Shown here: positions 11,051-35,546 of the stretch, one piece after another
Position numbering within the stretch: position 1 is the first letter of the stretch
Layout of the letters: each line of letters opens with the position of its first letter
Virus record (IMG/VR): IMGVR_UViG_3300009506_000012
Coordinates: 18,164-82,163 of that record
DNA length: 64,000 nucleotides
Source of the DNA: a virus
Reading direction: 5' to 3' (one strand)
Made by a program: the position numbers and the translations under genes
The notes under the pieces: model-generated
The model's database searches: none
Told to the model about the DNA's origin: nothing
What the model saw: the letters and a program-made list of their open reading frames with translations, nothing else

Positions 11051-11057
11051 ATTTTCC

Positions 11058-11428: not shown

Positions 11429-11429
11429 C

Positions 11430-11759: not shown

Positions 11760-11882
11760 TGGTTTTGTATTTATGGTGGAACAATACGACTTTTTGGGCT
11801 GACCGTTCTTATTGGCGCAAAGCCTGGGAGGTCGTATACACACAAACAGCACCCGATCATATATGGACAAGGAGAAATTGAG

Positions 11883-13777: not shown

Positions 13778-13844
13778 GTTCCCTGAACAGTGGCCAACCA
13801 CAGACCGTGATTACAGGTTACGAAACAGAGATCAAAGGAGATAG

Positions 13845-14159: not shown

Positions 14160-14186
14160 ATGGTGCTGAATGCAATTCTTTCGTAA

Positions 14187-14215
14187 TTGACATTTAGAAT
14201 TAGACAACTTACAAT
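14187..14215 (+). promoter_or_regulatory. sigma70-type promoter for the head genes
   Basis: TTGACA-17 bp-TACAAT. Confidence 0.8.
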
Positions 14216-14281
14216 AAAAATAACATAAACCTCACATGAACACTAAAAGTCGCATTGTCGCTGCTATTCGTGTGAGGTTTT

Positions 14282-15910
14282 ATGGTTGTCCCAATCAATA
14301 CGCAGGTCGAGGAGATCATGGGGGAAGCCCAGCTTATCAAGTTCTCTTTGTCCGACATAAAAAGTTTCCCTCTGAACGAATTCCTTGAGCGCAGGATCAT
14401 CTATCAGAATCTTTTCTCATGGTACAACGGCGACAAGCTGAAGGAAACACAAATCCAGGGCGGGAAACAGGTAGAAAAATTCCCAATCAAACTAAATCCG
14501 ATCCGGGGTGCAGTTTACAAACATGCCTATGCCTTGTTTGGCGAATTCTCAATGGATTCAAGGCCACTGGCACCGGCTCAGCTGCGTCCGGACGATATGA
14601 GCAAAAAGGACCAGGCGCAACGCGGTCAGGATTTCCTGAATACCGTATGGGCAGAATCCCATGGTCGTTCTGTGCAAATGCGGAACGGTCTTATTTCACA
14701 GATCAACGGGGGATGTGTATTCAAAACAAGCTACGTCCCTAAAGCAAGATTCAGGACTTATCCATTCAGAGTAGAAGGCATACATGTCAGCAACTTTATT
14801 GGTGTGCCTATGTCCGGGGAAGAATTCAGGCTCGAGGAGGCCTGGATCGTTAAGGCGATCAGCCATGACGAAGCCAAGCGAAAATTCGGATTGAGTTTTG
14901 ACCCGGCAGAACCGGTCTATTATGTTGAATACTGGAATCCGGATGAATGTGATTTTTCAGTCAACGGTGTTCGCATTACTTCAGGTATCCGGGATACCCT
15001 TGGCAAAGAGATTCTTTATGGCGGGAAAAACCCTTGGGGGTTTGTGCCTATTACATATATTCCCAGAGTGCGCACAAATGGCTTTTATGGGGAATCTCTC
15101 ATTACAGACAACGTGCAGGGTATTGTAGAGGAACTCAACCGCAGAACCGCGGATTTCGGGGATGCAGTTTCCGATGATAGCCATACCTATTATGTACTTG
15201 TGGGTGCCAGCAAACGTCCGGATATCTATGAACTGGCTCCGGGGGTGCGTGTCATCCAGATCAAACCCGAACCCTCCTTTACAGGGAAAGAAGTACCACC
15301 GTCATTGGAAAGACTGGGGGCACAGAAAGCCAATGAGTCCATGGATAAGCTGATTGACCAGCTCTATAACAATTTCAGACGCGAAGCCTTTGTACCTGCC
15401 GTTGCAGATGGTGAGGATGAAGGTTCACAGCGTAGCGCCCTTACCCTGGCGATGCGCATGTGGCCTTTGCTTTCTCACACCTCCATGCAGCGTATCCTGT
15501 GGGGTGACGGGTTGTCTCAGGTTGACAATCAGCTCTTACGTATGGCTCAGATCAAGGGTTTTGGGGATATTCCACAAAGTGTGACCAGGATGCGTATCGA
15601 GCGCAAATGGGCTCCATTCCTGCCAAGGGACAGCGAGTCCTTTATCAATGAACTGGTCAATCGTGCTTCTGCAAATCTTGGGTCCACGGAACATTTGTTA
15701 TCGCTTATTGATGACATCGAGGATCCCGCAGAACAATACAAGATGATCATCGCGCAACTCAAAGAGATTGCCGATATCGATGCAAAAGCAACTGCCGAGG
15801 CTCAGGCTGCCGCCTATCAAGCTAGAGCAGACGCGACTGCGCAAAATCAAACATCAACACCACAAAAACAGACGAGCAAAACCACATCAAAAGCCAATAA
15901 TAAGGAGTAA
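14282..15910 (+). CDS. portal protein (SPP1-like)
   Basis: 542 aa after terL; WYNG, NPWGFVPITYIP, SALTL..RMWPL, WAPFLPRD motifs. Confidence 0.85.
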   Translation: MVVPINTQVEEIMGEAQLIKFSLSDIKSFPLNEFLERRIIYQNLFSWYNGDKLKETQIQGGKQVEKFPIKLNPIRGAVYKHAYALFGEFSMDSRPLAPAQLRPDDMSKKDQAQRGQDFLNTVWAESHGRSVQMRNGLISQINGGCVFKTSYVPKARFRTYPFRVEGIHVSNFIGVPMSGEEFRLEEAWIVKAISHDEAKRKFGLSFDPAEPVYYVEYWNPDECDFSVNGVRITSGIRDTLGKEILYGGKNPWGFVPITYIPRVRTNGFYGESLITDNVQGIVEELNRRTADFGDAVSDDSHTYYVLVGASKRPDIYELAPGVRVIQIKPEPSFTGKEVPPSLERLGAQKANESMDKLIDQLYNNFRREAFVPAVADGEDEGSQRSALTLAMRMWPLLSHTSMQRILWGDGLSQVDNQLLRMAQIKGFGDIPQSVTRMRIERKWAPFLPRDSESFINELVNRASANLGSTEHLLSLIDDIEDPAEQYKMIIAQLKEIADIDAKATAEAQAAAYQARADATAQNQTSTPQKQTSKTTSKANNKE

Positions 15911-19310: not shown

Positions 19311-20393
19311 ATGGCTACAACTGCTCAGGCCGGGATTTTTGGATGGGGTCCTCAAAGCGCCATGGAATCTGCCGCAACGCAGTATTGGCGTCACAAGGCC
19401 ACAAATATCGATCTCGGTATCTTAGACGATATCAGGGTCGGACCGCTTGAAATTGGTTCCGGCCCATTTCCCACGTTCCCGTACAAGGCCGGTTATGTGA
19501 TCGGCGGGGGCGTGGATATGCAGCCTCGTCTGGAGGATTCTCTAGGCTGGCTGTTGTACGCGCATCTGGGTTCTCACAGTGTCGGTGCGGCTGTTGATGG
19601 GGTTTATCCTCACACGTTCGTGCCTGATACTGACCCGTCATTCGTGCGCTGGCTGTCTTTGCGCAAGTACATTCCTCAGAAGGAATCAGACCCGGCTACT
19701 GACCTCGGTGAACTTTATACCGACTGCAAACCAGTCAACCTTGGCCTGACCCTGCCTAACGATATGCCCATTACGGCACGTTGGGACTTCATGGGACGTT
19801 CCTTCACCCTGGTTGACGACATCACGCCGTGGACCTGGGAAAATGCCGCGTATGAGGACTGGCAGTCCATTCCGGTAGGTTGTGAAACCGGTGGCGACAT
19901 CCAGTTTACCGGTGGCGATCTATCCGGGCTGTCCGTTCCTGTGGTACGTGCGCAGGTTGCTTTCGGCAATCAGAACCTGGATATCCGTCAAGAAAAGGTG
20001 TATGGCTCACCTGAACTAGAGGACATCACCATCATTCAGCGTCAGTTGACCTTCGATGTAACGATCAAGTGGAATGATCCCTCGATCTATCGAAATATTC
20101 TGACCCTGCTTTCCAACGGTACTAGCTGGTCATCCCGTCCTTTGACTGGTTCACTGGATATCAAGACCGTAGGTACTGCATTAGCCGGTTCGTCCACTAC
20201 ACAGAAATTCGAGCTTGATATTACTGCCGATGAAGTCATGTGGCAGATGAACGGCCCAATCACGATGGCCGCTGGTCAGGCAATCATGATGCGGTTCACT
20301 GGAACTGCATTGGAGCCTTCCAGTGGTGACTATGCAACATTCACGTTGTATAATGAGGTGGCTGATTACGCTTGGCCTTCTGCGGGCTCTTAG
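19311..20393 (+). CDS. tail tube (major tail) protein
   Basis: Beta-rich; YPHTF.P, WLSLRK motifs; ends SAGS. Confidence 0.8.
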   Translation: MATTAQAGIFGWGPQSAMESAATQYWRHKATNIDLGILDDIRVGPLEIGSGPFPTFPYKAGYVIGGGVDMQPRLEDSLGWLLYAHLGSHSVGAAVDGVYPHTFVPDTDPSFVRWLSLRKYIPQKESDPATDLGELYTDCKPVNLGLTLPNDMPITARWDFMGRSFTLVDDITPWTWENAAYEDWQSIPVGCETGGDIQFTGGDLSGLSVPVVRAQVAFGNQNLDIRQEKVYGSPELEDITIIQRQLTFDVTIKWNDPSIYRNILTLLSNGTSWSSRPLTGSLDIKTVGTALAGSSTTQKFELDITADEVMWQMNGPITMAAGQAIMMRFTGTALEPSSGDYATFTLYNEVADYAWPSAGS

Positions 20394-20477: not shown

Positions 20478-21173
20478 ATGACAACTAAATTCGCAATCAT
20501 CGCAGGCCCCAGAACCGGAAGCAGTACGATCCAAGTCTTTCTTGAAGATCTGGGGGTTTTTGTTTATAGAGAACCATTTAGACCCGAGAAAAATATACAT
20601 CCATATCCGGATACTCTCAATGAGATTTATTTCAAAAAGAACGCAGTTGGATTGAAGCATGTTTACACTCATGTCAACATTGAGGAAAATATCCGAATGG
20701 TTGAATGGCTTTATCAGAGAGGCATTACTACTGTTCTTCTGACGCGCAGGAATAAATTTCACCAGGCGGTCAGTCTTTTGATTGCCAAAAAACTGAATAT
20801 CTGGGCAGTCAAACCTGATGTCATGGCGGCGCTTGAATACAGGAATGTTGAAAGTTTTGAAATCTCGATCAGCGAGATTGAAAAGTTTATTGAATATGCT
20901 GAAACGATTGAAAGCGCTATTATGGGTATCCATATTCCCGACTATCAGATTTTTCAGACATTGTATTATGAAGCCTATTTCAATCAGGACTCTGCCAGGG
21001 CATTGACCAATGCAAGTCAGCTTGTTCGGGCGCTGGGTATCACAGCACCGGATTACATCGCTCCAATGATCCAACAGCATTTTGCGCCAGGAAGAAAACA
21101 GAACACCGAAGCTATCTATAGATTGATTTCTAATCGTGCTGAAATTGAAGAACATTTCGGAGCAAAATTATGA
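20478..21173 (+). CDS. sulfotransferase (Stf0-like)
   Basis: PAPS 5'-loop GPRTGSS and 3'-motif LTRRN..QAVSL.IA. Confidence 0.85.
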   Translation: MTTKFAIIAGPRTGSSTIQVFLEDLGVFVYREPFRPEKNIHPYPDTLNEIYFKKNAVGLKHVYTHVNIEENIRMVEWLYQRGITTVLLTRRNKFHQAVSLLIAKKLNIWAVKPDVMAALEYRNVESFEISISEIEKFIEYAETIESAIMGIHIPDYQIFQTLYYEAYFNQDSARALTNASQLVRALGITAPDYIAPMIQQHFAPGRKQNTEAIYRLISNRAEIEEHFGAKL

Positions 21174-21736
21174 CAGACAAGGTTATTGTCGATCTTGGAG
21201 GAGAGGGGCATTACCAAAATGGCACCGTAACGGTCAACATCAATCCCGAATCAGGTAGCGACATCATATGTGATATCACGGCGCGTGGCCAGGAGCTGCA
21301 CAGATACTTTCCTTATGGGAGTGTGGACATGTTTACCTGTATCCATACTCTTGAACATCTTGACCCGGCTGATGTTCCTGAAAGTCTGCTTTACTGGAAA
21401 TCCATTCTGAAAGATGGAGGCCGGTTATTGGTTATCGTTCCGGACCTGAAGCAGTTATGGCAGGATGTAATGAATGAAATTGTTTCCGAAGATGTTGCAA
21501 TCGCAATCACATTTCGTAATAATTTCAATGGAAAATTTGAATACTGGGACACCCATAAATGGGGCTGGACACGTAAAACTTTGCGCCGGGATATGGCATC
21601 CTGTGGTTTCAAAGTCATTGATCCTGAACGACCATTTTCGAAAGATTACATCTTCGATGATTACAGCTTTAGCTACACCGGTGATGTGCATCATTATGTT
21701 ATTCCAAATTTGCGAGTGATGGGGTTGAACAAATGA
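21170..21736 (+). CDS. class I SAM-dependent methyltransferase
   Basis: VDLGGEG, HTLEHL, LKDGGRLLVIVPD, HKWGW. Confidence 0.85.
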   Translation: MTDKVIVDLGGEGHYQNGTVTVNINPESGSDIICDITARGQELHRYFPYGSVDMFTCIHTLEHLDPADVPESLLYWKSILKDGGRLLVIVPDLKQLWQDVMNEIVSEDVAIAITFRNNFNGKFEYWDTHKWGWTRKTLRRDMASCGFKVIDPERPFSKDYIFDDYSFSYTGDVHHYVIPNLRVMGLNK

Positions 21737-22500
21737 ATGAATATCTTGAGAAGTTTCACCTGCAATATTTTCTGGAACACAAAAGAGAGAATCGCTATTG
21801 GTGGTTTTTGAGGAATCAGTTTATGCCACCTGTGTATACTACCTTGGATGAACCTGAATTCTTATTGCTGATGGAGTGGTTTCGAGAAACAGACAAGAGA
21901 GGTGTTGCCGGGGAATGTTCTGTGCCTCTCATCTCTGCTTTGCTTGGATTTATCGCCGGGTCCGGGATAGATGCAGTTGTACAGCTGGGTCATGCTTACG
22001 GATATTCCAGTCTGCTTATGGGCTGGATGCTTCGCAGAATGGGGAAAAAACATGCACTATTTTCAATCGATATCAATCCGGATGCAACTGCTTTTGCCCA
22101 ACACTATATTGACAAGGCTGACCTCAATGAAGTTGTTGCGCTCCGTGTTGGCAATAGTGCTGACCCAAAGATGGTAGATCGTGCCAGGCAGTATTTTGGA
22201 AAAGAACCACAAATGATCTTCATTGACAGCAGTCATCAATACAAACATACACTGAATGAATTACGGCTTTATTACAATGCGCTTCCCAAGAATGGGATTA
22301 TCTTTCTGCATGATATCTCTCGTTTTGCAACCAGGTTTGATAAAACAGGAAAGGGGGGAGTCATGAAGGCGGTCTGCGAGTTTGTTGAAACCAATCTTAC
22401 TGAATCCGGTCTGTTCAATCGGCATATCGAAGGTAGCGACAGGGACGCGCCTTTGATTTTGTTGGATGGGTGTGGTCTGGGAGTGATACAGAAGTTATGA
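21733..22500 (+). CDS. SAM-dependent methyltransferase (Methyltransf_24-like)
   Basis: VQLG.AYGYSS, IDI, IFIDSSHQY, IFLHD, GCGLGVI. Confidence 0.85.
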   Translation: MNEYLEKFHLQYFLEHKRENRYWWFLRNQFMPPVYTTLDEPEFLLLMEWFRETDKRGVAGECSVPLISALLGFIAGSGIDAVVQLGHAYGYSSLLMGWMLRRMGKKHALFSIDINPDATAFAQHYIDKADLNEVVALRVGNSADPKMVDRARQYFGKEPQMIFIDSSHQYKHTLNELRLYYNALPKNGIIFLHDISRFATRFDKTGKGGVMKAVCEFVETNLTESGLFNRHIEGSDRDAPLILLDGCGLGVIQKL

Positions 22501-24650
22501 ACAGTTTCGATTGTTTTGATACTCTGATTGGTCGAACTTGCGTTGATCCTGTCAATATTTTCGAAATGGTTGGAAACGAGATTAGGGATCCGGATTTTGT
22601 CAAAAAACGGATTGCCGCAGAAAGATTCTTTCAGCGCAAAAAGGCTCCTTATACACTTGATACTATTTATAAACAGCTTGGCCAACCAGAGCTGGCTGAA
22701 ATTGAATTCGGCTTCGAGCTTAAGAGTACATTCAAAATAAAACGCTATGCAAAAATGCTTCGGGAAGATGACATTATTATTAGTGACATGTACCTGACTG
22801 AAGATCAGGTACGCTTACTTCTCGAGAAAGCCGGCATTCATTTCGGCGGGAAGATATTTGTTAGCAATTATGGAAAGTTTTCTGGAAACATTTGGAGAAC
22901 GGTCAAAGAGCAGAGTCACAAGATCGAATTTCACCATGGGGATAATTCTTTCACAGACTTTGAAAGTCCAAGAAAACACGGTATTCGTGCAATCAGGGTC
23001 ACTGACACAAAACTGAACAAGATCGAAAAGCTGTATGCCGATACGCTTCCGGAACTGGGTGCCTGGGTGCGCAACAATCGGCTTCGGTATATCGTGGACG
23101 AGCGCAAAGAATTCTTGACGTTTATGCAAAATCAGTACAACATGCCGCTGTTGTGGAGTATCTGTCAGGAACTTGATCACTATCACAATGTGTATGATTT
23201 ATTATTTATGTCCAGAGATACCCAGCTTCTGCACCGCATGTACACGACCCTGGTTCCGGACGCGAGAGCTGAATATATCTATATCAGCCGAGATACTTTG
23301 CGAGGTGACAGTCAGTCTTATTTCGAATATTTGAATTCGAAGTTAACAAACAGATCTATACTGGTTGACATGGCATCCTCTTGTGGATCTTTGAAAGAAT
23401 CTCTACCTCATCTTCAGGTAAAAGAGCCCAATGTGTTTACAGCTGTTTTTTTACCTGTGCCGTTCAAGGTCGATCTTGGCCCAATCCATTGTTTTGCGAT
23501 GACAACCAATACCCAGATACAAATCAACAATACCTATTTGGAGATGTTGAATTATGCAGACCATCTTCATGTGGCTGATGTTGTTGACGGAAAACCTGTA
23601 TTCGATCTTCCTGGTGAATATGACATGGAAAAGGTCAAAGCTTACCATCGTGCTTTCAACCTGATGCTTGAAAATATTCCCAACCGTATAGTTGATGCAA
23701 AACCAGTATTCTTCCATGCACTAGCTGAAATCCAGAAGAACAAAGACAGAATCGGCAAAGAGTTTCCGAATCATGTTCCTATCGAAATCAAGCATAAAAA
23801 AACCATAAAGCAGGAACGCGCCAAAGACAATGTGATTGTGATCGGAGCTATCGCTAATTATTCCTGGACAAACATAGAACCATGGTGGAAATCTTTGAAG
23901 GCAACCGGTTTCGATGGGGATATACATATGCTGTGCTACAACATTGGAGGCCAGTCAATTCGGTACATGGAACGTAGAGGCATTCAAACACATGTCAGAA
24001 AGTTGACCGGGAAACAGATTGTGATTGATCGCTTTCGTGACCTGGCTACGCTTCTGGATGATATCGATCCGGATACCTGGATTGTTTTTCCGGATGTTGG
24101 GGATATCGTATTTCAGTACAACCCGAGACACTACCTCGAATCTGTATCAAAAGATATTGTGGTGACGCATGAAGGTGTTCTTTTCAGCGGAAACAAGTGG
24201 ATGCTGAATAACCTCTATGAGAGCTTTCCAAAATACGCTGAAGGTCTGAAGGATAAGTTCTTCTTCAATGCTGGCTCCATAGCTGCTAAAGCTGGAATAC
24301 TTTCGCAAATGTCAGAACACATCTACAAACTATGCTTGGAAAATCAGAACGCCACCAGTCACGACCAGACCGCCATGAACATCCTGCTTCACAATAACCC
24401 TGTTTATCGAAAGAAAACATTATTTTTGAGTCCCAATGATCCATGGTGTTTTTGCGGAGCTTCAAGTATATTTGCACGACCCGAAGATGCCAAGAATTAT
24501 TTGAGCGATCCGGTTACAGTTCAGAACGGAATTTGCTATTCGCGCCCTAATGTAAAGACCTGCATGTTTCATCACTACACACGAAACAAAAATATTGCCA
24601 GGCAGGTGATAACCCAGGTCAATCGCAGATTTGTAAATTCAAGACGGTAA
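22497..24650 (+). CDS. HAD-like hydrolase fused to GT-A-type glycosyltransferase
   Basis: SFDCFDTL, ISDMY, HHGDN, SRD in the N-terminal half; DVGDIVFQYNP, FNAGS, HDQTAMN in the C-terminal half. The ATG at 22497 overlaps the previous stop. Confidence 0.8.
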   Translation: MNSFDCFDTLIGRTCVDPVNIFEMVGNEIRDPDFVKKRIAAERFFQRKKAPYTLDTIYKQLGQPELAEIEFGFELKSTFKIKRYAKMLREDDIIISDMYLTEDQVRLLLEKAGIHFGGKIFVSNYGKFSGNIWRTVKEQSHKIEFHHGDNSFTDFESPRKHGIRAIRVTDTKLNKIEKLYADTLPELGAWVRNNRLRYIVDERKEFLTFMQNQYNMPLLWSICQELDHYHNVYDLLFMSRDTQLLHRMYTTLVPDARAEYIYISRDTLRGDSQSYFEYLNSKLTNRSILVDMASSCGSLKESLPHLQVKEPNVFTAVFLPVPFKVDLGPIHCFAMTTNTQIQINNTYLEMLNYADHLHVADVVDGKPVFDLPGEYDMEKVKAYHRAFNLMLENIPNRIVDAKPVFFHALAEIQKNKDRIGKEFPNHVPIEIKHKKTIKQERAKDNVIVIGAIANYSWTNIEPWWKSLKATGFDGDIHMLCYNIGGQSIRYMERRGIQTHVRKLTGKQIVIDRFRDLATLLDDIDPDTWIVFPDVGDIVFQYNPRHYLESVSKDIVVTHEGVLFSGNKWMLNNLYESFPKYAEGLKDKFFFNAGSIAAKAGILSQMSEHIYKLCLENQNATSHDQTAMNILLHNNPVYRKKTLFLSPNDPWCFCGASSIFARPEDAKNYLSDPVTVQNGICYSRPNVKTCMFHHYTRNKNIARQVITQVNRRFVNSRR

Positions 24651-24651
24651 T

Positions 24652-24668
24652 GCTCCACATTGTGGAGC
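24652..24668. repeat. palindrome copy 4, GCTCCAC-ATT-GTGGAGC
   Basis: Between the TAA at 24650 and the ATG at 24677. Confidence 0.9.
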
Positions 24669-24676
24669 TGATTAGC

Positions 24677-25744
24677 ATGAGCGCCTACAATCCTCCAAGA
24701 CTTGTTTCCAAAGCATACGATAGACCTGTTGACATACTGGCTACCAGGCCGCATTTTGTTGACCATATCGCTCCTGTATGGAGGCACCTAGAAAATCGAG
24801 GTGGCTTTTATGTTCCTGAAGTATTGTTAGATTATGCTAAAACCAAAGTACCTGAAGCCGTAGGGGTAAAGCCAGTTGGCAGAAGCGATAAGCTGAATAT
24901 CAGGCCTCCCGAAAAAAATGTGTACTTTACCTGCGCTTATGGGGATTTAGAGAAAGGCATGATTACTGACCTGAAACGGGTTTTTATCTTTATGGAACAC
25001 GGAGTCGGGTTAGTGTTTCCGGGAAATCCTCACTATGCCGGGAGTGTTGGCCTTCGAAGGCGTGTTCATTTCTTTCTTGCGCCAAATCAGAATATTCATG
25101 ATAAGACCTGGACCACTTTTCCAGAAGCACCGCAAGCTATTGTTGGCACCCCAAAGATGGATAATGTTCCAACAGATATGCCGATCAACCGGGATGACCC
25201 GTTGATTATTATCTCATTTCACTGGGATGGAAGGAAGGTGGCCAGGGAAGCGGCGAACGCATATCCACATTTCAGAGAGATTCTTCCGGAAATTGCAAAA
25301 CGATATCACTTGGCCGGCCATGCTCATCCACGTATCGCAAACTACTTCGAAAGAGTGTATAATGAATTAGGCATTGAGTTCATTCGTGATTTTGATGAAG
25401 TCATGCGCAGAGGGGACCTTTATCTAAATGATGCCAGTTCAACAGCATATGAATTCGGCGTCACTGGGAAACCAGTCATCTTACTTAACTCGCCCGGTTA
25501 CCGGCGTAACATAAATTTTGGAATCCGATTTTGGCAATACACAGATTGGGCTATTCAGGTTGATGAACCTGGCCAGCTCATTTCTGCTATAGAACAAACA
25601 CTACATAAACCCTCACATGAACAGAAACAGAAACAGATGGTAGCAGACCTCTACCCGTACCATGGGCAGAGTGCAAAGCGTGCTGCTGATCAAATAAACA
25701 GATTTCTGAACATGCGAGGAACCAATGCCATACAAGATACCTGA
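24677..25744 (+). CDS. GT-B glycosyl/glycerophosphotransferase (TagB/TagF-like)
   Basis: FMEHGVG, VGTPKMD, HAHPR, LYLNDASSTAYEF..GKPVI motifs. Confidence 0.8.
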   Translation: MSAYNPPRLVSKAYDRPVDILATRPHFVDHIAPVWRHLENRGGFYVPEVLLDYAKTKVPEAVGVKPVGRSDKLNIRPPEKNVYFTCAYGDLEKGMITDLKRVFIFMEHGVGLVFPGNPHYAGSVGLRRRVHFFLAPNQNIHDKTWTTFPEAPQAIVGTPKMDNVPTDMPINRDDPLIIISFHWDGRKVAREAANAYPHFREILPEIAKRYHLAGHAHPRIANYFERVYNELGIEFIRDFDEVMRRGDLYLNDASSTAYEFGVTGKPVILLNSPGYRRNINFGIRFWQYTDWAIQVDEPGQLISAIEQTLHKPSHEQKQKQMVADLYPYHGQSAKRAADQINRFLNMRGTNAIQDT

Positions 25745-26225
25745 TGTTGTTGAAACCGAATTCAGACTCGAGGAATTAGATTCCAGAGAGAATATTCCTG
25801 ATGAAGAAGCCACAATGATTATGGTCAAGACTGCTTCAGTGGCTGAAAATTCAAAACGATCCCAACTGTTTTCAAAATACGTGCAGGAAATTCCAAAAGA
25901 TGATGCAGAACCAGAACGCATTATTTATAACTTCCCACTGTATACGCTTATGCAGAAGGAAACCTTTCTGACCCTGGTAGGGTGCAATATCCAATTCCCA
26001 ACTGGAAAGAGTGATAATGAAGGTAATCCGGAGCTGAAGCCTTTGTTTAGATTCCGTAAGACTCCCCGTGGAAACGAACTGAATATGAGTGAATTGGAAT
26101 TCAATAAAGCCTGGGGGATGCTTGACGATGATGTTGCCGCCGAGATCCATTCCAAAGTTTTAGAAGTCAATCCACACTGGATATTCCAGAATGTCGGAGG
26201 TAACACGGACCTGGGGGAAGGCTAG
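25725..26225 (+). CDS. tail assembly chaperone (gpG-like)
   Basis: Just upstream of the TMP; ends at the slippery site GGGGGAA. Confidence 0.75.
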   Translation: MPYKIPDVVETEFRLEELDSRENIPDEEATMIMVKTASVAENSKRSQLFSKYVQEIPKDDAEPERIIYNFPLYTLMQKETFLTLVGCNIQFPTGKSDNEGNPELKPLFRFRKTPRGNELNMSELEFNKAWGMLDDDVAAEIHSKVLEVNPHWIFQNVGGNTDLGEG

Positions 26226-26509
26226 TATCCGCAGAGCTACAAGGTCTAAAGGCTGCTTTGTGGGATTACTTTGGCCAAGCAAATGAACGAGCAGAAGGTA
26301 TAAAGGTAACAGAAGAAGAACGTGTAGACAAACCAAAAGCACTGACCAGATACGAACAAATACAAGAACTGCACATTCCATATGTTGATGGTGGCCTTAT
26401 GGATCAACCTTACTTATGGATGCAGCAGCATGGCGTCATCAAAAGTTTCCTCGTTGAATGGAACGCCACGCAAAAAGCATTAGCACAACTTTCAGCGCAA
26501 GGACAGTGA
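26213..26509 (+). CDS. tail assembly chaperone frameshift extension (gpGT-like)
   Basis: The -1 frame is open from G GGG GAA (26213-26219) into ORF 26258..26509; PY.GG.MDQP motif. Confidence 0.75.
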   Translation, partial: GGRLVSAELQGLKAALWDYFGQANERAEGIKVTEEERVDKPKALTRYEQIQELHIPYVDGGLMDQPYLWMQQHGVIKSFLVEWNATQKALAQLSAQGQ

Positions 26510-26510: not shown

Positions 26511-29500
26511 ATGCCCTACACGGTTCCAAATCCTACAACCGATCAATTCAGGACTTATCTTGAAAACCTTCTGAAAACATTTGATAAAACCTATCAGGTT
26601 CAATATGTGCCTCCACAGAAGGATGCCGGCAATAGCGATATTGAAGGAACGGATTTTTTCAACATCACAAAAAAATCCTCCAACAATGCTGGTGTTCTCA
26701 AGACTAACCTCAAGATAAACTTGGGACATGAGTCTCGTTTTAGAACGACCTACGGTGGACAGACTCCCCAGCAATTTGAACGTGCCCCGGAAATCCTAAC
26801 GGGTTCCGGGCAAAGTGCTTATACCGTTGGTGGCTCCTGGGCTTCAGTGGCCACGGTTGTCGATCAGCCTGGCGGGAAATCTGATATTGATATCAGGCAT
26901 GATTTGCGCTCTCCAATAGAAAGCCTGGCCACTTTGATCAGCACTGGTTTTTCAGATGTCGAAAAAGAAAACCGGTTCAATCCCGGAGCTGTTACGGGTG
27001 ATGTAACCAGCAAGATTATGAATCTGCTATCCACAGGTTCCAGTGAACACAGTGATTTTGCGGTCCCTGCCGGCGCTTTGATGACAACAACTGGAATTGA
27101 TGTAGATGCTGTTCGCAGAAAAGCCGCTCAAGCCATTCAGCTCGTAAATAGCTACGACCCTACTGGCACCGCAGAGGTAGGGCAGTTTGCACAACGAGAG
27201 GCGATAGCCAAGGCGCGTGAAAACATGATGCGTCTTAGCATTCCTGTACCTGGCCGGGGAGGAAAGCCAATTGATTCCTTTTTCAAAGAAGCTGGGTATG
27301 CTCCCGATCGCGCACAGGCTGACCGCCTTGTCGCATTATCACAGGCTTCTCGGGTTGTCCGTGATGCTCTTGGTCAGCCAACAGATACTGAAATCTATCT
27401 GCCTTCTCCGAAGATAGCCAAACACATGACTATTTTGAGTTCTGGTCGTCAACAAGCATCTTTACTTGGTGAAGATTATCAACCTATTGCGCCAAAGATG
27501 ATCACAGGACGTGTACCAACATCCGGATACAGAATGACAACCGCTGATGTTGGAGGCAGAATTCCTGAAAAGTCTCTAGTGCTTGGAACAATGTTTTCGC
27601 CTCAATATCCTATTCCGGGTGCAGGAATGTATTTTCCGGAAACTGTAGATGCCAATGTGAAATCAGGTGGCTACAAGGCTACTCAAAGTTTTGGAGTAAC
27701 TCGGAATGTCAAGGATCTTCTTACCGATAAAACCCAGCTTAATTTACAGCAACAAACCGGAAATGTAATCCCATCTTCTCTGAATTATGACGTTTTCTCA
27801 ATGCGTACTAAAGAGATGAAAAAGTCTGATCCGGATATTATGTTACAGCAACGAGCAGGCACACATTCTTTTGCCGTTGGAAATCAGCAATTGCGTATTC
27901 CCAGATATTACACGGCTGAAGGAATCGGAGCCAGCTACGATAAGCAGATGCTTCGCAAGAAACAACTTCAAGAGGTGACCCCGGCAGAGATTGAAGCACT
28001 TTCAAAACGCCTGGGCGTGAATGTTGTTCCAGACGCAACCATTGAAGAAGTCCTCTTAGAGATGGAAGGCCAAAAACTAGTTGGTGGCAAGTTTGCCATT
28101 GAGGGTGTCAAATCAGATATCACCCCTTATACCGGCACTCCAACTTTTTCAGCTGGTGGCAAGGAAAGAGCCATCAGCGCAGTAACCTGGGAATCCAAGC
28201 AAATGCTGGAAACCTTTACAGGTAGCCTTGGGGCTATTTCTCCTACAGCCCAATATGGAATCCTGAATGAATATCAAAAATCGCTTACGGCTTCAGGGGA
28301 TACGGATATGGCCGCGAACGTTCGTGCCGTCATCAAACAGCAAAAGGCATTGAGGAGAGAGGATCCTACAGCCAGGCTTGATCTTCAAGCAGCTGCAAAT
28401 CAAATAGCAGGAACTGCAACGGATGCACCTGTACATGGATTGTCCAGAGATATCTTTCAGCGTGTATTTCTGGGAGGCTCTAAGGTACAAGATTTTGCAG
28501 GTATGAATGAGGCAGACCTATCTGCGTTTGCCCAATCTGATCTGAATGTTCGCAATCTGAAAAAATTCGGTATGGGATGGGTATCTCCCGAAATGAGCAA
28601 TCCCATAACAACCATGTGGGACAGAAGCCAGGTCGAGGCTTTGTTCACTGGATACCGTCAGGGAAGTAATGTACCTGAAGCTGAATTACGTGCGCGGTTT
28701 GGGCGTCAATATGGTTTTGATTTTTCAAATGCAAAAGGTGACCAGATTGCACAGACGTTCAGGCCTAGTGGGTTTTACATGCCAGCGATTGCCGGTCCAT
28801 CTGTGGAGTTTTCCGGAGGCGGCACACTTGGTTCCGAAGAAACGCAAATCCTTTCAGCGATTGCACCAGGCTTTGCAAACCGTCTGGGCGCTAATGCAGA
28901 AGGACTGACCCGGCGTGATCCTGTGCGTTGGGCTCAACGTCAGATCGCACATATCGCCGCTACTGAAATGGATCGGGGCGAGGGTAAGTACACCAAGATT
29001 GATAATGCGCTTCAGATTGGCACAGAACAGGCGACCAAAATGTGGGCAGATCCGGAGTTTCGTGCCTTGCTTGGAGATGAGGCCGGTGATTTAGCTGGAA
29101 TGAAACGCTTTGAAGAAAAGCTGAAAAGTTTCTTTCCGGGCTCAGAGGATTTGAACCGCAGGCCTATTACCTTTGAAGCTGCCCCAGGTCGTTACCTTCC
29201 ATCAACCAGGGCAATTTCTGCTTTAGCTACTGAAAGTTCGGCAACTATGCGAGGCGGCATAAGAACAGGTGAGGATGTTACACGTTCTTGGAATATGTTC
29301 CAGAGCGCTTTTTCCCAGGCTGTCACTTCGCAGATCAACGAGGACCCGACTGGTTTGCTTGAGGGTACCCAGAATCTAACATCGCATTTTATGAGACAGT
29401 TTGGCCTCCCTGAAGGCGGCAAGCGTGATGTTATCAAGAAAATGATGGGAAGCGAAATCGGTGTTGCTTCAGGTCACTATGCTTTCTGGAATGAACTTAA

Positions 29501-32500
29501 ACAAAACGAGGTTTATGCCAGTAAAGAGAAATACATGGAAGCAATCCGTAAAGAGCTTTCAGCCCAGGGACTTGATACCCCCGAACGACCATTATCCAAT
29601 CAAGAAGTAGAACAGGTCTACAACATGATTGCAGGTCTGCCTTCAGAGGTTGGAACTGCGCCTAATGATGTGCGAACCAAAGGGTTACCCGGTGTGGTGG
29701 CTCGCTGGCCTATTGTAGCCGGTGAGGAATCCATGCTGGGAATGCGCTTTGTCACCCCGGAGCATCTACAGCGTTCGGGCCGGCAGGCACCTGTTGAGGC
29801 CGGTATGGGAAACCTTCACTGGCGAATCGGTGTTGGGCCGTCCAGTATTATGCAGGGTGACTTCGATCTTGACTACATGCTTGGTTTGATGGGGCTGACC
29901 GGAACAAGAGATGAAAGTGGCAAGCTGGATGTGAGTTTCGCAGCCTATAATAGAAACGGCAGGCTCGGAAAAGATATAAGTGCGCTTGTCAATCGAACAC
30001 AGCAAATGAGCTATGAGACTATTCAGAGGATCCTTTATCCATCTAAAAATGCTCAACAGCAATTCGACCCAATTTTCCAGGCATTCCAGGATAGAGATAA
30101 AACAGGTACGCTTGGGCCAATGCAACAAGTGGCAAGAAATCTGATTGGCGAACAGTTTGGAAAATCAGGCTGGCAGCCTTACGGCCATCTGTTAGACAGC
30201 GTGGCTACATATGGGGGAGCCAAAATGATGATGGGTACTTCTTATAACTTCACTCGTGCGCTCGAAGCAGCAGCCGGTGTAGGCGGCTGGTCAACTGAGG
30301 GAATCATGCAGGGACGTAGAGGCAGGGCACAGATCTATCAACCTCACCTTGATCTTCAGACATCCCAGGCTGCACCGATGGTTCGTATGTATCAGTCATC
30401 CTTCTTGGCCGAGGGCAAGGGTGGCAAACTGGGATTGGGCTTTGGTACCGATGTGGCTGGGTATGGATTGCAGTTCATGAAAAATGCCGGCAAGATCATG
30501 AATCTGAGCGAGGATAATACCAGTCGCATTATTACCATGCTGGCAGGTAGTGCCATTACTCCTACAACAGCCGGTGAGCTTCCATCTCCGGAAATGCTTG
30601 GGTATGCTTTCTCTCCGGAAGAAGGTAGGGTAAATACTGCTCCTGAAGATATGCAGACTTCACTGGACCTGTTCACAAAATGGAAAAATGCAGAACGCCA
30701 CCCAGAGAATGCTGCCGAATACAATAAACGCGCAGATTACGAGGAGGCTTACATGAGAACAACCGGCCTCGCTGACGTACTTCAGGCACCCTATAACATG
30801 GAGGGCACCACAGATGAAAGAGCTACTGCCATGCAACACACTCTTTCCCAGTGGATGAAATATAACTATTACGGCACGAAAGAAGGCCGTGAAACAGCCT
30901 TGCAGGGCAACTTCATTACAGCCATGTTCTCGAAGTCTTATGCAAAGAAACAGGAAAAGGAACCAGGATGGACACCTCCACTCGACTTCAGGACTTCGAA
31001 ACTCGGTTCACGGATGATGGGCAAAGCCAATATCCAGGCACCTCTTTTCAATATGATGAAAGGCGGTTTATCTTCCGGACGCACCTTGCGCCGTCTGCTG
31101 AACTCCATAGGACAGACATCCGGTCTGACAAGTTGGGCAACCGGCAATCTTCAGGCTCTTGGTTTTGGAACGGACGAGACTATCTTCCCGCAATCACAGG
31201 TATCCGCTTCGGGTAACGTGCGATCTACCGGGCCGAACGGTGAACCGATTATCGTCAGTCCAGAAATGGAACGTCTATGGGCTAAAGACTGGGCACGTAT
31301 GAAAAACAAAGGTCTCTACGAGGGCAACTTTGGTCAATACATAGAAGAACGCAAGGCAGACCTGGCTAGGCTAAACACATCTTTTGCAGGAAAGCCTGTG
31401 GATCAAGCAAGAGTAAATCCGGAAACAAAAGACATCGAAGGTGGCTTCGAGAATATTCCCATGGTGGATTTCGATGCCATCAATAATGCACAACCAGAAC
31501 CAGAACAAACGCAAACTACTACTACACAACCCGAACAAACTACTGCAAAACCACAACAAAAAACGCCAAAACCACAACAGCCCAGTAGTACCCAAAAACC
31601 GCAACCTGGTGGTACACAGCCTCCCAATAAACAACCACCCGGAGGAGGAACGTCTACTCCAGTAAGCCCCACCACCCCACCCTCTGGTACTCCCCCACCC
31701 AGAGCGCCGCAGGATGCTTCTCAGAACACCAAGTTTCCTGGTCTACCTGCCAACAGTATTCCGACTGAACAGGCACAAGAGTACATCGGCAAGTTTAGAG
31801 AGTACATGCCAAATATCACACAAGCAGCTGGCGCAATTCAGTCAGAACTTGGCGCTATTACTGGGGCAACCCCTGGACCAATGGGTGTGTACGAAGCTAT
31901 GGCGCAACTTCCTGAAGAACAGCGCATGGAAATCCTGAAAAAGTATCAGGAACCGGCGCGTCAGGCTCAGGAGCTGATGGGACTTGCGAAAAAGGTTTAT
32001 CCAAATCTTGAGAAGAACGTGATCGACCCGGCTGTACTCAGGCAGTTCGGTATGTCCGGAGCTGATCTGCGCATCATGTCTGAAGATACTCTGCTCACCA
32101 ACAATCCAGTTGGGCAGAACCTGGTTGACCTTGGTGGTCTGACGGGTGTTCCGGGGTTTGAAACCTTGAAAAAGCGTGGAGGTACCACAGCCGCATCCGG
32201 TCAGGTTAGTGCAAATATTGCTCAGATCCATTTCCAGGAATTGGGCGAAATTACAAAGAAGCTAACTGAGAATTTTGAGAACCTATCAAAAGGTCAAATC
32301 AAACATAGCGATGCCCTGAAGGAAGAAACCAAACTCCTTGAACAGCGTGAACAGGCCAGGCAAAAACAAGCGTTATCAGAGAAAGCTGCTCCACTAGTGG
32401 AGCAAGGCTTACTCGAGCCTGAAATCACGGCCACCAAACGAGGAAAACCGCAAATCTCGTACAAGCGTACTGACAAACCAATTCCTCAAGAAATGTATAA

Positions 32501-35500
32501 GGCTTCCCAGGCTTATGATGAACAGCTTCTGAAAACTGAAGGTCTTGGTGGGACAGAAGGCCAGGATAGATTGATCGGTGGTGTACGTCCGAGTTTCATG
32601 CGCCGGGTGCTGGGTGGCTTTGGACTCATGTACATGCGTTCATTAGGCAATATCATTACAGGTGGGTTAGGGTATGGCCAACAAGAGCGCACAAACATGG
32701 AGCAAGTATTCGGAGCCTCAGCTGGTGGAATGGCTGGCATTGGATATACTCCTCAGAATCAGGCGCAAGTGCTTCAGAATCGGATGGCGCTGGGTGGCCA
32801 GGCTTATAACCCTATGCTTGGATTGCAGATGGCAAGAGCGCAATCTCCACTACTTCAGGATATTTCAGCAGCTGGTGGTGCTGGACTTGGTACTTATGCC
32901 CTGTTACAACAGGCTGCTCTTTGGGGTGGTGAAGGATCCATATTCCAACAAATAGCCAATGGCGGTTTATCTGCTTTTGGTGGTCGATTGAATATCGGTG
33001 CAGGGACTGTGGTTGGCGGTGCAGTTGGCGCTTCGTTGCTGGCGCAAGGATATGCCAAGTCTCAAGATACTGAAGGCCTTGCTTACCGATGGGGTACTGG
33101 GAATGCCTTCTCAAAGATCACAGGCTTGACCGATACTCTTGGTCGAATTGGAGCTGGCCAGGCATTTACAGGTGATATCTATCAACGCGGTGCTACATAT
33201 CGAATGCTTCAGGAAAACCTGCAACGTCCTGAAGGAATGACCACTCAAGGTGTTATGGATTGGGTTACAGAGCAGGGTCTTGGTGGTCAGAAGTATGTTG
33301 ATGCCGGGACTCCGGAAGGTCAGGCATGGTATGGCCAGGCAACACAAAAACTATTGCTTGACCAAAACCCCGAATTTGCTCCTGAAACAATTGCGGCAAC
33401 TTATCAGTTCATGCAACGGAACCAGATGAACCTGAAAGACTTTGGGACAATTGCATCCCAATTTCAGACAGGGTATACAGAAGAATCTGTTTCATCGATG
33501 CTCAAGGGTTTTGGAATGAGCATGGGGCAACAACTTTCGCAAACTGAGAATTGGGCTGGCGGGAATGCGCCTACCAATTTAGGTGTTGCTTACATGCAGA
33601 CGCTTGGCATGATCAACCAAAACAACGCGCCGCAATTCCAGGCCGGTCTTGAGTATATGGGTCAGCTTGGATTTGCCCCGCAAATAATGCAACAACAGCA
33701 AGGATTGAGCAATCAAGAAATGGTCAACCAGGTCTTACAGTGGGGAGGCCAGGGAGCTATGCAGGGTGGTTTGTACGCACAACGAGCGCAGGCCTATCAG
33801 CAAGGTGCCTTTATGGGTTGGAATGTTCAGGCTCCGGAAGCACCTCCTGAAAATCTGACACCCGAGCAGTTCGGTCAGGGGATGTATGAGTCCCAGAAGC
33901 AATCCCAGAAGATGATGCAAATCGAGCAGATTGCTAACCAGTTCTCATCCAATTTCGGATGGAGTGGTGAACAGCGTCAGGGTTTCCTGGGTGACATGGA
34001 AAGTTTCTACAAGTCCGGACGCTTCAATGCTTATTATGCTGATGTTCTGGGTGGCGCTTCCCAGATGAATCCTTATGCCATGACTCAGCTGTATACCCAA
34101 CAACAGCCAGGCGGGGCACTGGCCGGTATTGGACCACAGATACAACCATGGCAGGTCACCAAAGATATTTGGGGGCCAGGTGCGGGAGAGTTGGCAGGTA
34201 AAGCCGTGAACCTGCCAGCTTTCACCGTGTCCGGAGGAACACACCCACAATTCCAGGCATTGTCTGAAATGCTTGGACCTGATTTCATGCAACAATTGCT
34301 TGGCACCGATGCCGGGAATGCCTTTGTCAATGGGTATCAGATGGAAGGCACGAACATGCCGGCTGTGGCTGGTCTTATGGGATATCAGATGCAACAAGCT
34401 GATAAACAGTGGGATTTGCGTCAAGCACAAATGGGTATTTCAGATCGAGGCAATCAGCTTCAGATGGAATATCTTCCCAAGATATGGAATATTCAAGATC
34501 AAATGCGTGACCTTGGATATCGTCATCAGATGTTCCAGTTTGGTCAGCAAGAAAAACAGATTGCCATGCAAGCCGGTCAATTCTATGAAAACATAGGCCT
34601 CAGCGAGTATCAGTCCCAGCTTCAGCGTGGATGGACCCAACAGGATTGGGCATTCAATTCCGAAACCAGAGCGATGCAACACGGATGGCGAGTAGAGGAC
34701 TTCGAGGAACAACGCCGCTTTATGACTGGTCGTCAGCGCCGGTTGGCTGAACGCCAAATGGAACGCGAGAACATCACCTATGGTCGTGAGGGTGAACAGA
34801 TCGACCGTCAGCAAGAACGGCAAAAAGAACTTTGGGCACTTGAGGATGAGCGCTTCCAGATGCAGAAGGACCATTATGAAGAACAGCGTCAGATGCAGGA
34901 AGAATCTCTCAAGGAAAACAAGAAGTATTATGAGCAGAACTTTGAACTTCAGAAAAAGCTAACTGATCTTCAGCGCGAATTGACCATGAAGCAGCTGGAA
35001 CTTCAGAAAGAATCTCTTGAACTTCAGAAACAAATTGCTGAAGAACAACACAAGATGCAACAAGTACAGCAGGCTATCCAGTTACTAATGCTTCAAAATC
35101 AGACCAAGCTAGAGGACAGCCAGCAAATCTTTGGTGGCATCAGTGAGGAGATGCGCACCCTGTTCGAGGATTGGGCTGATGTTATTGGCAACGGCGGTTC
35201 GGGCTCCGGAGGTTATACCAATTACACTGTATACGGATCCGGAGGTGCTAGCGGTACTATCAATAGTGGTGTCCGTCCGGAAGGAAGTAGCGGCGGCATG
35301 CAGATGGCCGAGGGTGGCGACTTCTGGGTGGGAGAAAACGGTCCGGAACTGCTCAGTGTTGGTATGGATGGTCCAACTACCAGGATGCGAGGACGCATTC
35401 AACCTACCAAATACGATCCTTGGGGTTCTACAGCGATAGATTCAAAACCCTCTTTCAAAGAAACCAAAGAGCAGACCATTGTTGTGCAGATTGGCAACGA

Positions 35501-35546
35501 GGAAATCAAGCGCTTTGTTGTCAGAACAGTAGAGGATGACTTGTAA
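26511..35546 (+). CDS. tape measure protein with N-terminal two-barrel RNA polymerase-like region
   Basis: Follows the TAC pair; C-terminal coiled coil and AEGG...VGENGPEL TMP motif; N-terminal half has GGK527..K534, GK971RDVIKKMMG, R1065WP and GD1117FDLD. Confidence 0.85.
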   Translation: MPYTVPNPTTDQFRTYLENLLKTFDKTYQVQYVPPQKDAGNSDIEGTDFFNITKKSSNNAGVLKTNLKINLGHESRFRTTYGGQTPQQFERAPEILTGSGQSAYTVGGSWASVATVVDQPGGKSDIDIRHDLRSPIESLATLISTGFSDVEKENRFNPGAVTGDVTSKIMNLLSTGSSEHSDFAVPAGALMTTTGIDVDAVRRKAAQAIQLVNSYDPTGTAEVGQFAQREAIAKARENMMRLSIPVPGRGGKPIDSFFKEAGYAPDRAQADRLVALSQASRVVRDALGQPTDTEIYLPSPKIAKHMTILSSGRQQASLLGEDYQPIAPKMITGRVPTSGYRMTTADVGGRIPEKSLVLGTMFSPQYPIPGAGMYFPETVDANVKSGGYKATQSFGVTRNVKDLLTDKTQLNLQQQTGNVIPSSLNYDVFSMRTKEMKKSDPDIMLQQRAGTHSFAVGNQQLRIPRYYTAEGIGASYDKQMLRKKQLQEVTPAEIEALSKRLGVNVVPDATIEEVLLEMEGQKLVGGKFAIEGVKSDITPYTGTPTFSAGGKERAISAVTWESKQMLETFTGSLGAISPTAQYGILNEYQKSLTASGDTDMAANVRAVIKQQKALRREDPTARLDLQAAANQIAGTATDAPVHGLSRDIFQRVFLGGSKVQDFAGMNEADLSAFAQSDLNVRNLKKFGMGWVSPEMSNPITTMWDRSQVEALFTGYRQGSNVPEAELRARFGRQYGFDFSNAKGDQIAQTFRPSGFYMPAIAGPSVEFSGGGTLGSEETQILSAIAPGFANRLGANAEGLTRRDPVRWAQRQIAHIAATEMDRGEGKYTKIDNALQIGTEQATKMWADPEFRALLGDEAGDLAGMKRFEEKLKSFFPGSEDLNRRPITFEAAPGRYLPSTRAISALATESSATMRGGIRTGEDVTRSWNMFQSAFSQAVTSQINEDPTGLLEGTQNLTSHFMRQFGLPEGGKRDVIKKMMGSEIGVASGHYAFWNELKQNEVYASKEKYMEAIRKELSAQGLDTPERPLSNQEVEQVYNMIAGLPSEVGTAPNDVRTKGLPGVVARWPIVAGEESMLGMRFVTPEHLQRSGRQAPVEAGMGNLHWRIGVGPSSIMQGDFDLDYMLGLMGLTGTRDESGKLDVSFAAYNRNGRLGKDISALVNRTQQMSYETIQRILYPSKNAQQQFDPIFQAFQDRDKTGTLGPMQQVARNLIGEQFGKSGWQPYGHLLDSVATYGGAKMMMGTSYNFTRALEAAAGVGGWSTEGIMQGRRGRAQIYQPHLDLQTSQAAPMVRMYQSSFLAEGKGGKLGLGFGTDVAGYGLQFMKNAGKIMNLSEDNTSRIITMLAGSAITPTTAGELPSPEMLGYAFSPEEGRVNTAPEDMQTSLDLFTKWKNAERHPENAAEYNKRADYEEAYMRTTGLADVLQAPYNMEGTTDERATAMQHTLSQWMKYNYYGTKEGRETALQGNFITAMFSKSYAKKQEKEPGWTPPLDFRTSKLGSRMMGKANIQAPLFNMMKGGLSSGRTLRRLLNSIGQTSGLTSWATGNLQALGFGTDETIFPQSQVSASGNVRSTGPNGEPIIVSPEMERLWAKDWARMKNKGLYEGNFGQYIEERKADLARLNTSFAGKPVDQARVNPETKDIEGGFENIPMVDFDAINNAQPEPEQTQTTTTQPEQTTAKPQQKTPKPQQPSSTQKPQPGGTQPPNKQPPGGGTSTPVSPTTPPSGTPPPRAPQDASQNTKFPGLPANSIPTEQAQEYIGKFREYMPNITQAAGAIQSELGAITGATPGPMGVYEAMAQLPEEQRMEILKKYQEPARQAQELMGLAKKVYPNLEKNVIDPAVLRQFGMSGADLRIMSEDTLLTNNPVGQNLVDLGGLTGVPGFETLKKRGGTTAASGQVSANIAQIHFQELGEITKKLTENFENLSKGQIKHSDALKEETKLLEQREQARQKQALSEKAAPLVEQGLLEPEITATKRGKPQISYKRTDKPIPQEMYKASQAYDEQLLKTEGLGGTEGQDRLIGGVRPSFMRRVLGGFGLMYMRSLGNIITGGLGYGQQERTNMEQVFGASAGGMAGIGYTPQNQAQVLQNRMALGGQAYNPMLGLQMARAQSPLLQDISAAGGAGLGTYALLQQAALWGGEGSIFQQIANGGLSAFGGRLNIGAGTVVGGAVGASLLAQGYAKSQDTEGLAYRWGTGNAFSKITGLTDTLGRIGAGQAFTGDIYQRGATYRMLQENLQRPEGMTTQGVMDWVTEQGLGGQKYVDAGTPEGQAWYGQATQKLLLDQNPEFAPETIAATYQFMQRNQMNLKDFGTIASQFQTGYTEESVSSMLKGFGMSMGQQLSQTENWAGGNAPTNLGVAYMQTLGMINQNNAPQFQAGLEYMGQLGFAPQIMQQQQGLSNQEMVNQVLQWGGQGAMQGGLYAQRAQAYQQGAFMGWNVQAPEAPPENLTPEQFGQGMYESQKQSQKMMQIEQIANQFSSNFGWSGEQRQGFLGDMESFYKSGRFNAYYADVLGGASQMNPYAMTQLYTQQQPGGALAGIGPQIQPWQVTKDIWGPGAGELAGKAVNLPAFTVSGGTHPQFQALSEMLGPDFMQQLLGTDAGNAFVNGYQMEGTNMPAVAGLMGYQMQQADKQWDLRQAQMGISDRGNQLQMEYLPKIWNIQDQMRDLGYRHQMFQFGQQEKQIAMQAGQFYENIGLSEYQSQLQRGWTQQDWAFNSETRAMQHGWRVEDFEEQRRFMTGRQRRLAERQMERENITYGREGEQIDRQQERQKELWALEDERFQMQKDHYEEQRQMQEESLKENKKYYEQNFELQKKLTDLQRELTMKQLELQKESLELQKQIAEEQHKMQQVQQAIQLLMLQNQTKLEDSQQIFGGISEEMRTLFEDWADVIGNGGSGSGGYTNYTVYGSGGASGTINSGVRPEGSSGGMQMAEGGDFWVGENGPELLSVGMDGPTTRMRGRIQPTKYDPWGSTAIDSKPSFKETKEQTIVVQIGNEEIKRFVVRTVEDDL
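32387..32404. repeat. palindrome copy 5, TGCTCCAC-TA-GTGGAGCA
   Basis: Identical to copy 1; inside the TMP coding region. Confidence 0.85.

Follow-up and report, generated by a model that had tools for sequence, protein, structure and literature searches.

A putative two-barrel RNA polymerase at the N-terminus of the likely tape measure protein of an uncultured phage from marine sediment

We analyzed a window of 64,000 nucleotides, comprising bases 18164-82163 of the 82,163-bp virus record IMGVR_UViG_3300009506_000012, in which a single ATG-started open reading frame (ORF) encodes a giant protein of 3011 aa (26511-35546, plus strand; coordinates below are those of the window, and features of the giant ORF and of the tail module lie on its plus strand). 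Our analysis indicates that this ORF likely encodes the tape measure protein (TMP) of a long-tailed phage with a non-contractile, siphovirus-type tail, fused at its N-terminus to a single-chain two-barrel RNA polymerase (RNAP) that spans the first ~1500-1650 residues and that would be delivered with the virion and transcribe early genes. A previous interpretation of the same DNA, made without database searches and referred to here as the sequence-only reading, had proposed such a fusion for positions 26511-31460, which correspond to the first 1650 residues of the ORF.

The giant protein consists of an RNAP module, a linker and a tape-measure-like part. An N-terminal region (aa 1-300, 26511-27410) that is conserved in the family, with a mean identity to P0001 of 0.32 in the alignment described below, precedes the predicted polymerase core. 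This core would be formed by a beta-like half (aa ~300-770, module drawn at aa 301-770, 27411-28820) containing a first barrel with two lysines, and a beta'-like half (aa ~820-1500, 28968-31010) containing a clamp-core-like start, a second barrel with a DxDxD motif, a candidate bridge helix and a trigger-loop region. A Pro/Thr/Gln-rich linker (aa 1651-1770, 31461-31820; P 21%, T 15%, Q 14%), whose length varies widely across relatives, follows. The remaining ~1240 residues (aa 1771-3011, 31821-35543) resemble a tape measure by gene position, Gly-rich hydrophobic segments, a Q/E-rich stretch and a conserved C-terminus.

Structure prediction had been put forward in the sequence-only reading as a check of the polymerase fold. 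The AlphaFold2 model of aa 301-1500 reached a predicted local distance difference test (pLDDT) value of 78 and a predicted template modeling (pTM) score of 0.65. When this model was searched against the PDB with Foldseek, all 46 matches listed were RNAP chains, including beta, beta', Rpb1-type, QDE-1 and the non-virion enzymes of AR9 and phiKZ, with marginal E-values. Furthermore, two structure search engines, one of them independent of Foldseek, placed only two-barrel RNAPs on top of 48,161 folds. Second-largest (beta-type) subunits aligned to residues 1-471 of the model, and largest (beta'-type) subunits aligned from ~520-530 or ~670 to ~1200. The chain therefore runs from a beta-like half to a beta'-like half, as in other single-chain forms. 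Some of the largest-subunit matches started at their own residues 10-25, in the clamp-core region, while beta' and Rpb1 alignments started at model residues 669-675, opposite their own residues ~331-351, where the third motif of the sequence-only reading sits. Isolated double-psi beta-barrel domains aligned over model residues 684-866. Based on this model, we conclude with high confidence that the N-terminal module has a two-barrel RNAP fold.

Among predicted viral structures in BFVD, the best fold matches were segments of giant uncharacterized proteins of the Microcystis phages MaMV-DC (E 1.2e-9) and Ma-LMM01. Proteins of Acinetobacter phage vB_AbaM_ME3 and of crAss-like phages and a 'minor tail protein' of the uncultured Siphoviridae sp. 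ctnpt50 (E 3.7e-6) were also among the top matches, and many named viral RNAP subunits appeared in later rows. These giant and mostly unnamed proteins may themselves hide more virion polymerases, some of them within tail proteins.

We then asked which residues are retained in relatives of the giant protein. A word-seeded search recovered 3 relatives, and an exhaustive phmmer search with aa 300-1400 against 1.84 billion cluster representatives returned 16 proteins at E<=1e-3, 13 of which had E<=1e-30. Together, both searches yielded 17 family proteins. Twelve full-length relatives (3319-4095 aa) carry the same fusion as one ORF; the fusion therefore characterizes the family and does not stem from faulty assembly. 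Fourteen of the 17 proteins were aligned (alignment A2), leaving out the short P0013, P0016 and P0017. The aligned proteins are 23-45% identical to the giant protein of the window and share 54 invariant columns, 52 of which fall within aa 1-1650. No cultured member of the family was found among 50,697 INPHARED phage records using blastn and tblastn with either half of the protein, nor was a relative or a prophage copy found in one genome from each of 185,579 prokaryote species.

All seven motifs on which the sequence-only reading was built are present at the residues it gave: LVLG..FPE (356-377, preceded by S355), VGGK527..K534 (524-537), GK971.. (970-1004), VVAR1065WP (1062-1067), QGD1117FDLD1121YM (1115-1123), TYGGAKMMMG (1233-1242) and YQPHLD (1276-1281). 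The alignment bears out the view that these motifs exceed chance for most of their key residues, but not for K971 of the third motif, which is not conserved, whereas the neighboring G969 is kept in at least 90% of the sequences and Y990 is invariant. In the first barrel, K527, G532 and K534 of the two-lysine hairpin (28080-28121; model strands 227-230 and 233-239, pLDDT 76-78) are identical in 14 of 14 proteins. A beta-type barrel with two conserved lysines thus lies N-terminal to the beta'-type barrel. In the latter, R1065 and P1067 of the RxP strand (29694-29711; model strand 759-766) are likewise invariant, as are G1116, D1117, D1119 and D1121. The three aspartates form the putative metal-binding triad D1117-F-D1119-L-D1121, encoded at exactly the nucleotides previously reported (29859-29873), and lie in the model in a loop before strand 822-826; a DxDxD-bearing loop on a beta'-type barrel is expected of the two-barrel superfamily, and invariant residues coincide with the barrels. 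The sequence-only reading had named a lack of DFDLD conservation in homologues as a refuting outcome, and the DxDxD motif was kept in all 14. As far as computation can tell, none of the refuting outcomes named there was observed. The x positions vary freely (F/Y/Q/E and L/A/W/Y/Q) beside the invariant aspartates, as a metal-binding triad predicts.

Downstream of the second barrel, a 33-residue helix (aa 1225-1257, 30183-30281; model residues 925-957) carries the invariant residues M1241, Y1245 and R1249, together with K1238, which is kept in at least 90% of the aligned sequences. The helix is followed by YQPHLD in the trigger-loop region (30336-30353), of which Y1276, Q1277, P1278, L1280 and D1281 are invariant in all 14 proteins (YQPxLD). 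We interpret this helix as a candidate bridge helix, with reservations because its pLDDT is 48-75.

The genomic context supports the identity of the giant protein as a TMP, which the sequence-only reading had assumed. The genes of the window are ordered portal (phrog_64), capsid (phrog_1357), 211 aa, 185 aa, 360 aa, five transferase genes, 166 aa, 83 aa, the giant gene, 143 aa, 1372 aa and 768 aa; family annotation of the neighboring genes gave few or no families. The 360-aa product (19311-20393) is a tail tube protein of the double-domain type whose fold matches known tubes, the best structural match being the tube of P74-26. Directly upstream of the giant gene lies a G-like tail assembly chaperone ORF of 166 aa (25725-26225), which matches no family and has homologues at the same position in the lineages L001/L002, L003, L008/L009 and the distant L004. 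It overlaps by 22 nt a GT-like extension in the -1 frame (26204-26509, open from 26204), with a candidate slip site GGGGGAA at 26213-26219. Since a second ORF in the -1 frame and GGGGGAA in the overlap were found in 5 of 5 lineages (the window, L002, L003, L008 and L004), we infer a -1 frameshift that joins both ORFs. A conserved frameshifted chaperone pair reportedly precedes the tape measure gene in long-tailed phages. The giant gene thus stands downstream of a tube gene and a -1 frameshift chaperone pair, with a five-gene transferase island intervening here between tube and chaperone. The order capsid, 211 aa, 185 aa, tube, G/GT, giant, 143 aa and 1372 aa is kept in the five lineages.

Within the tape-measure-like part, composition and hydropathy revealed two Gly-rich hydrophobic windows at aa 2114-2182 (32850-33056), with Kyte-Doolittle values over 19 residues of 1.02 (aa 2114-2132) and 1.51 (aa 2159-2182), within a region containing 21% Gly (aa 2031-2200), and a Q/E-rich stretch at aa 2651-2900. 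A search for shorter relatives of this part returned one 795-aa protein. Furthermore, aa 2658-2884 are shared (30% identity, E 1.3e-22) with a protein of 2182 aa that occupies the tape-measure position in the more distantly related phage L004 (IMGVR_UViG_3300028835_000996, 4352-10900); this protein is a singleton in the database searched. When compared with the family RNAP profile, the L004 protein displayed, correctly ordered, an RxP strand, GDTDADRM (residue 722) and an AKEMMGRTYN helix, at E 5e-4 for that single target, a score of just 3.7 bits. Judged from these motifs, the L004 protein is probably a fusion of this type, though shorter and much more diverged. Taken together, we consider it very likely that the giant protein is a tape measure.

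The sequence-only reading had noted no second RNAP in the window, and we detected none across the entire 82,163-bp genome. All ORFs of 80 aa or more were searched with an unfiltered profile of aa 300-1500, which matched only itself, and a DxDxD scan revealed no other large ORF with an RNAP-like motif. Pfam analysis of 20 larger ORFs of the early arm identified a DnaB-like helicase, an AAA/IstB-like ATPase, a DNA methylase, a DnaJ-domain protein, DUF4942 and DUF3268, and no polymerase; a ParB-like protein was recognized using PHROGs. Judging by these searches, the genome encodes no second phage polymerase. A 546-aa ORF with DHDYDG (bases 7210-8850 of the genome, minus strand) was considered as a second polymerase and set aside; it had no PHROG or Pfam match and gave a weak Toprim-type lead, with an atlas score of 0.78 to a cluster with 58% TOP6A-Spo11_Toprim members. 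Its product is a candidate primase partner of the DnaB-like helicase encoded at 60473-61351.

The earlier proposal that the phage later uses host sigma70 promoters found no support, as sigma70-like sites were not enriched in the region 1-14300 (24 vs 25.7 +/- 4.9 in shuffles). Two near-consensus sigma70-type sites were observed, one at 14187-14215 (TTGACA-17-TACAAT, 11/12), 67 nt upstream of the portal gene, and one at 11022-11050 (TTGACT-17-TATATT) in a divergent region.

If it behaves like gp96 of Thermus phage P23-45 and like other tape measures, the giant protein would be synthesized late, chaperoned by the G/GT pair encoded just upstream, and incorporated in the tail with its C-terminus at the tip. 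Upon infection, it would be expelled, its hydrophobic segments would insert in the membrane and help form a channel across the envelope, and the N-terminal polymerase module would transcribe the first-entering DNA. Because no second phage polymerase appears to be encoded, transcription of later genes would depend on the host RNAP or again on the injected one.

Several observations weigh against this interpretation, beginning with the fold. The model was built from a shallow alignment of 16 sequences, the Foldseek E-values against the PDB range from 6e-4 to 5e-3 with just 2 at or below 1e-3, the template modeling scores are 0.08-0.14, and the segment of the bridge helix has a low pLDDT, as given above. 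The giant protein has no match in Pfam (E<=1), PHROGs (E<=0.01) or PDB sequences (E<=1), the family profile returned only low-complexity noise in the linker and the TMP part when searched against PDB sequences, and hhalign against gp96 1-1200 found nothing (probability 0.2%). The crAss-like phi14:2 protein gp66 (PDB 6VR4), a phage relative of the QDE-1-type single-chain two-barrel polymerases for which the sequence-only reading had quoted a DFDID motif, was not among the matches listed in the structural searches, which proves nothing. A protein-atlas feature search with aa 301-1500 gave chance-level scores (0.75-0.78, to tape-measure clusters) and was not used as evidence. The shallow model, E-values near 1e-3 and the chance-level atlas score of 0.78 would fit a resemblance to RNAPs that is an artefact of modeling combined with chance motifs. 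We regard this as extremely improbable, given that both search engines, including the one independent of Foldseek, rank only two-barrel RNAPs on top, that beta-like and beta'-like matches fall on the two halves in the right order, and that the invariant residues are at the barrels. The module could also keep the RNAP fold without synthesizing RNA and act as a plug, as part of a channel or as an anchor that binds DNA, in line with a divergence so extreme that no sequence method detects the fold and with the lack of a cognate promoter in our scans. However, a dead enzyme would leave the aspartate triad, both lysines and the arginine of RxP free to drift, and these residues are invariant in 14 of 14 proteins at 23-45% identity; the aspartates even persist in the far more distant L004 protein. 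A module devoid of activity thus appears very unlikely.

Other objections concern the function and location of the protein. A folded module of ~180 kDa with a connector of ~500 residues between its barrels is hard to fit in a tail tube; for this very reason gp96 is described as flat and clamp-less (PMC10770324). No repeated promoter-like motif for the enzyme emerged from scans of exact k-mers and of 9-mers with one mismatch in 31 intergenic gaps, which returned only T/A-rich words and a palindrome. The tube protein model has a pLDDT of 50.6, and Pfam revealed no peptidase or TMP domain in the giant protein, unlike in gp96. Tape measure families were thus not matched in Pfam or PHROGs at the thresholds above, and tblastn of aa 1960-3011 against the 50,697 phage records gave no match. 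Both results would fit an ejected virion protein that is internal or cargo, like the large polymerase-bearing proteins of N4-like or crAss-like phages, rather than a tape measure, in which case something else would set the length of the tail; the P23-45 study also mentions that crAss-like and N4-related phages have virion RNAPs fused to large proteins (PMC10770324). Nonetheless, many tape measures match no family, so that the absence of a family match weakens the TMP assignment only a little. The gene is at the tape-measure place, after a tube gene and a G/GT-like pair with a conserved -1 slip site, the tail module contains no other long ORF that could act as a ruler upstream of the 1372-aa protein, and hydrophobic Gly-rich segments are present, which makes a non-tape-measure protein quite unlikely. 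The polymerase may instead be active and have another main job, such as pulling the genome by transcription or making replication primers. The conserved catalytic-type residues, the lack of a dedicated promoter motif and the presence of a DnaB-like helicase for which the only primase candidate is the 546-aa protein with its weak Toprim lead are compatible with such a role, and the P23-45 authors themselves propose that transcription is coupled to DNA entry (PMC10770324). Yet the fused enzyme of P23-45 uses defined promoters to transcribe a defined set of pre-early genes (PMC10770324), early transcription and the pulling of DNA are mutually compatible, and no two-barrel enzyme acting as a primase was found in the literature consulted. 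This alternative is unlikely, if the least so of the four, and a virion-delivered early polymerase remains our favored interpretation of the module.

The P23-45 fusion cited in the sequence-only reading is real. According to Chaban et al. 2024 (PMC10770324), the N-terminal ~1200 residues of gp96, a tape measure of 5002 aa, are an active two-barrel RNAP. Virions contain this enzyme within the full-length protein, and it uses AT-rich promoters to transcribe pre-early genes. One of these pre-early genes encodes a second, non-virion RNAP, gp64, and gp96 has a short disordered connector at 613-679 (PMC10770324). Tape measures with an N-terminal virion two-barrel RNAP occur in P23-45 (gp96; PDB 8H2M, 8H2N) and also in P74-26, G20c and TSP4. 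Like gp96, the protein described here is encoded by one giant ORF with the RNAP N-terminal and the tape-measure part behind, and its DxDxD motif is preceded by an RxP strand, as seen in the gp96 translation. The gene order tube, small chaperone-sized ORF and giant gene is also that of P23-45. In contrast, no sequence or profile similarity to gp96 was detectable, and sequence comparison of the structural proteins of the two phages gave no match. The giant protein is shorter overall (3011 vs 5002 aa), but its RNAP part is longer, with DxDxD at 1117 vs 779 in gp96 and about 500 residues, mostly of pLDDT 55-92, between the barrels (K534 to R1065). It lacks the metallopeptidase domain of gp96, its genome lacks a non-virion RNAP partner equivalent to gp64, and it comes from marine sediment rather than from a hot spring. 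Structurally, the RNAP part is nearer to QDE-1 and gp62 than to gp96. Because of the lack of homology, this nearer resemblance, the long connector, the matches that begin at the clamp core, and the absence of a peptidase and of a partner polymerase, we did not file the giant protein in the gp96 family. An ancient shared ancestry of the complete tail module with P23-45-type phages is possible, given that the tube protein matches the P74-26 tube best in fold and that the genes are locally arranged alike.

Among other polymerases, QDE-1 of Neurospora (PDB 2J7N/7Y7P), with 10-13% identity in structural alignments, is a eukaryotic RNA-silencing enzyme without a virion part. The virion RNAP gp50 of N4 offers an analogy only, as a giant virion-carried protein injected to transcribe early genes; it has a T7-like single-subunit fold, not a two-barrel one, and belongs to a short-tailed phage without a tape measure. 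P74-26 gp62 and P23-45 gp64 (PDB 8F5M, 8F72) are free-standing early proteins of ~590 aa, about a third of the size of the present module, and are described as absent from virions (PMC10770324).

The genome is classed as 100% complete and carries an exact direct terminal repeat of 144 bp. Three DNA runs, all from a single marine-sediment metagenome study, contained DNA nearly identical to the giant gene; the genome probably came from one of these runs. The phage is uncultured, and its habitat is marine sediment, mesophilic-looking.

The palindrome returned by the promoter scans, (G)CTCCAC-N2-3-GTGGAG(C), occurs in ten copies in the 82-kb genome, at 526, 2625, 5529, 24653, 32389, 49136, 54352 and 63363 of the window and at bases 9364 and 14144 of the genome. 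Short intergenic gaps among leftward genes hold six of the copies. The one at 54352, where the late and leftward arms converge, has T-runs on either side, as in a bidirectional terminator, and the one at 32389 is inside the giant gene, where it encodes the conserved AAPLVEQ. The palindrome may be a hairpin promoter or terminator, but copies are also found inside late genes and it is absent from the relatives' loci.

The five genes of the transferase island (20478-25744) gave weak to moderate Pfam matches to a sulfotransferase, two or three S-adenosylmethionine methyltransferases, a nucleotide-diphospho-sugar transferase and a TagF-like glycerophosphotransferase, and may modify virion proteins or the host surface. 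The island is not at the matching place in L003 and L004, and homologues of its 364-aa gene occur in L001/L002 and L008/L009. A stand-alone HD_5 (HD-GYP-type) protein of 202 aa is encoded at 51317-51925, close to where the late operon ends (Pfam E 5.6e-26).

The concept of a polymerase carried by a tape measure has already been published: our full-text literature searches found such a fusion only in Chaban et al. 2024, whose supplementary surveys may already list relatives, and the precedent comes from Thermus phages with exceptionally long tails (PMC10770324). What is new here is a second, sequence-unrelated family from marine sediment, which would show that the strategy is more general than the single Thermus precedent. 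The family adds a deep branch to the tree of two-barrel polymerases, and its different architecture, with a long connector, no peptidase and no partner polymerase, provides a test case for a polymerase that travels with or through a tail. In practice, giant 'hypothetical' tail proteins in metagenomes are worth checking for hidden polymerases. The best match of the tube to P74-26, the distant fusion in L004 and the 'minor tail protein' of an unrelated uncultured siphovirus in BFVD are pointers to a broader and still doubtful reading, which we put forward only tentatively: TMP-borne two-barrel RNAPs may be an old and widespread feature of a deep siphophage lineage with double-domain (P74-26/T5-type) tubes rather than a Thermus oddity, and the marine-sediment clade may keep a fuller, clamp-bearing enzyme that works without a second phage polymerase. 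In that case, one injected enzyme would both start the infection program and help draw the DNA in.

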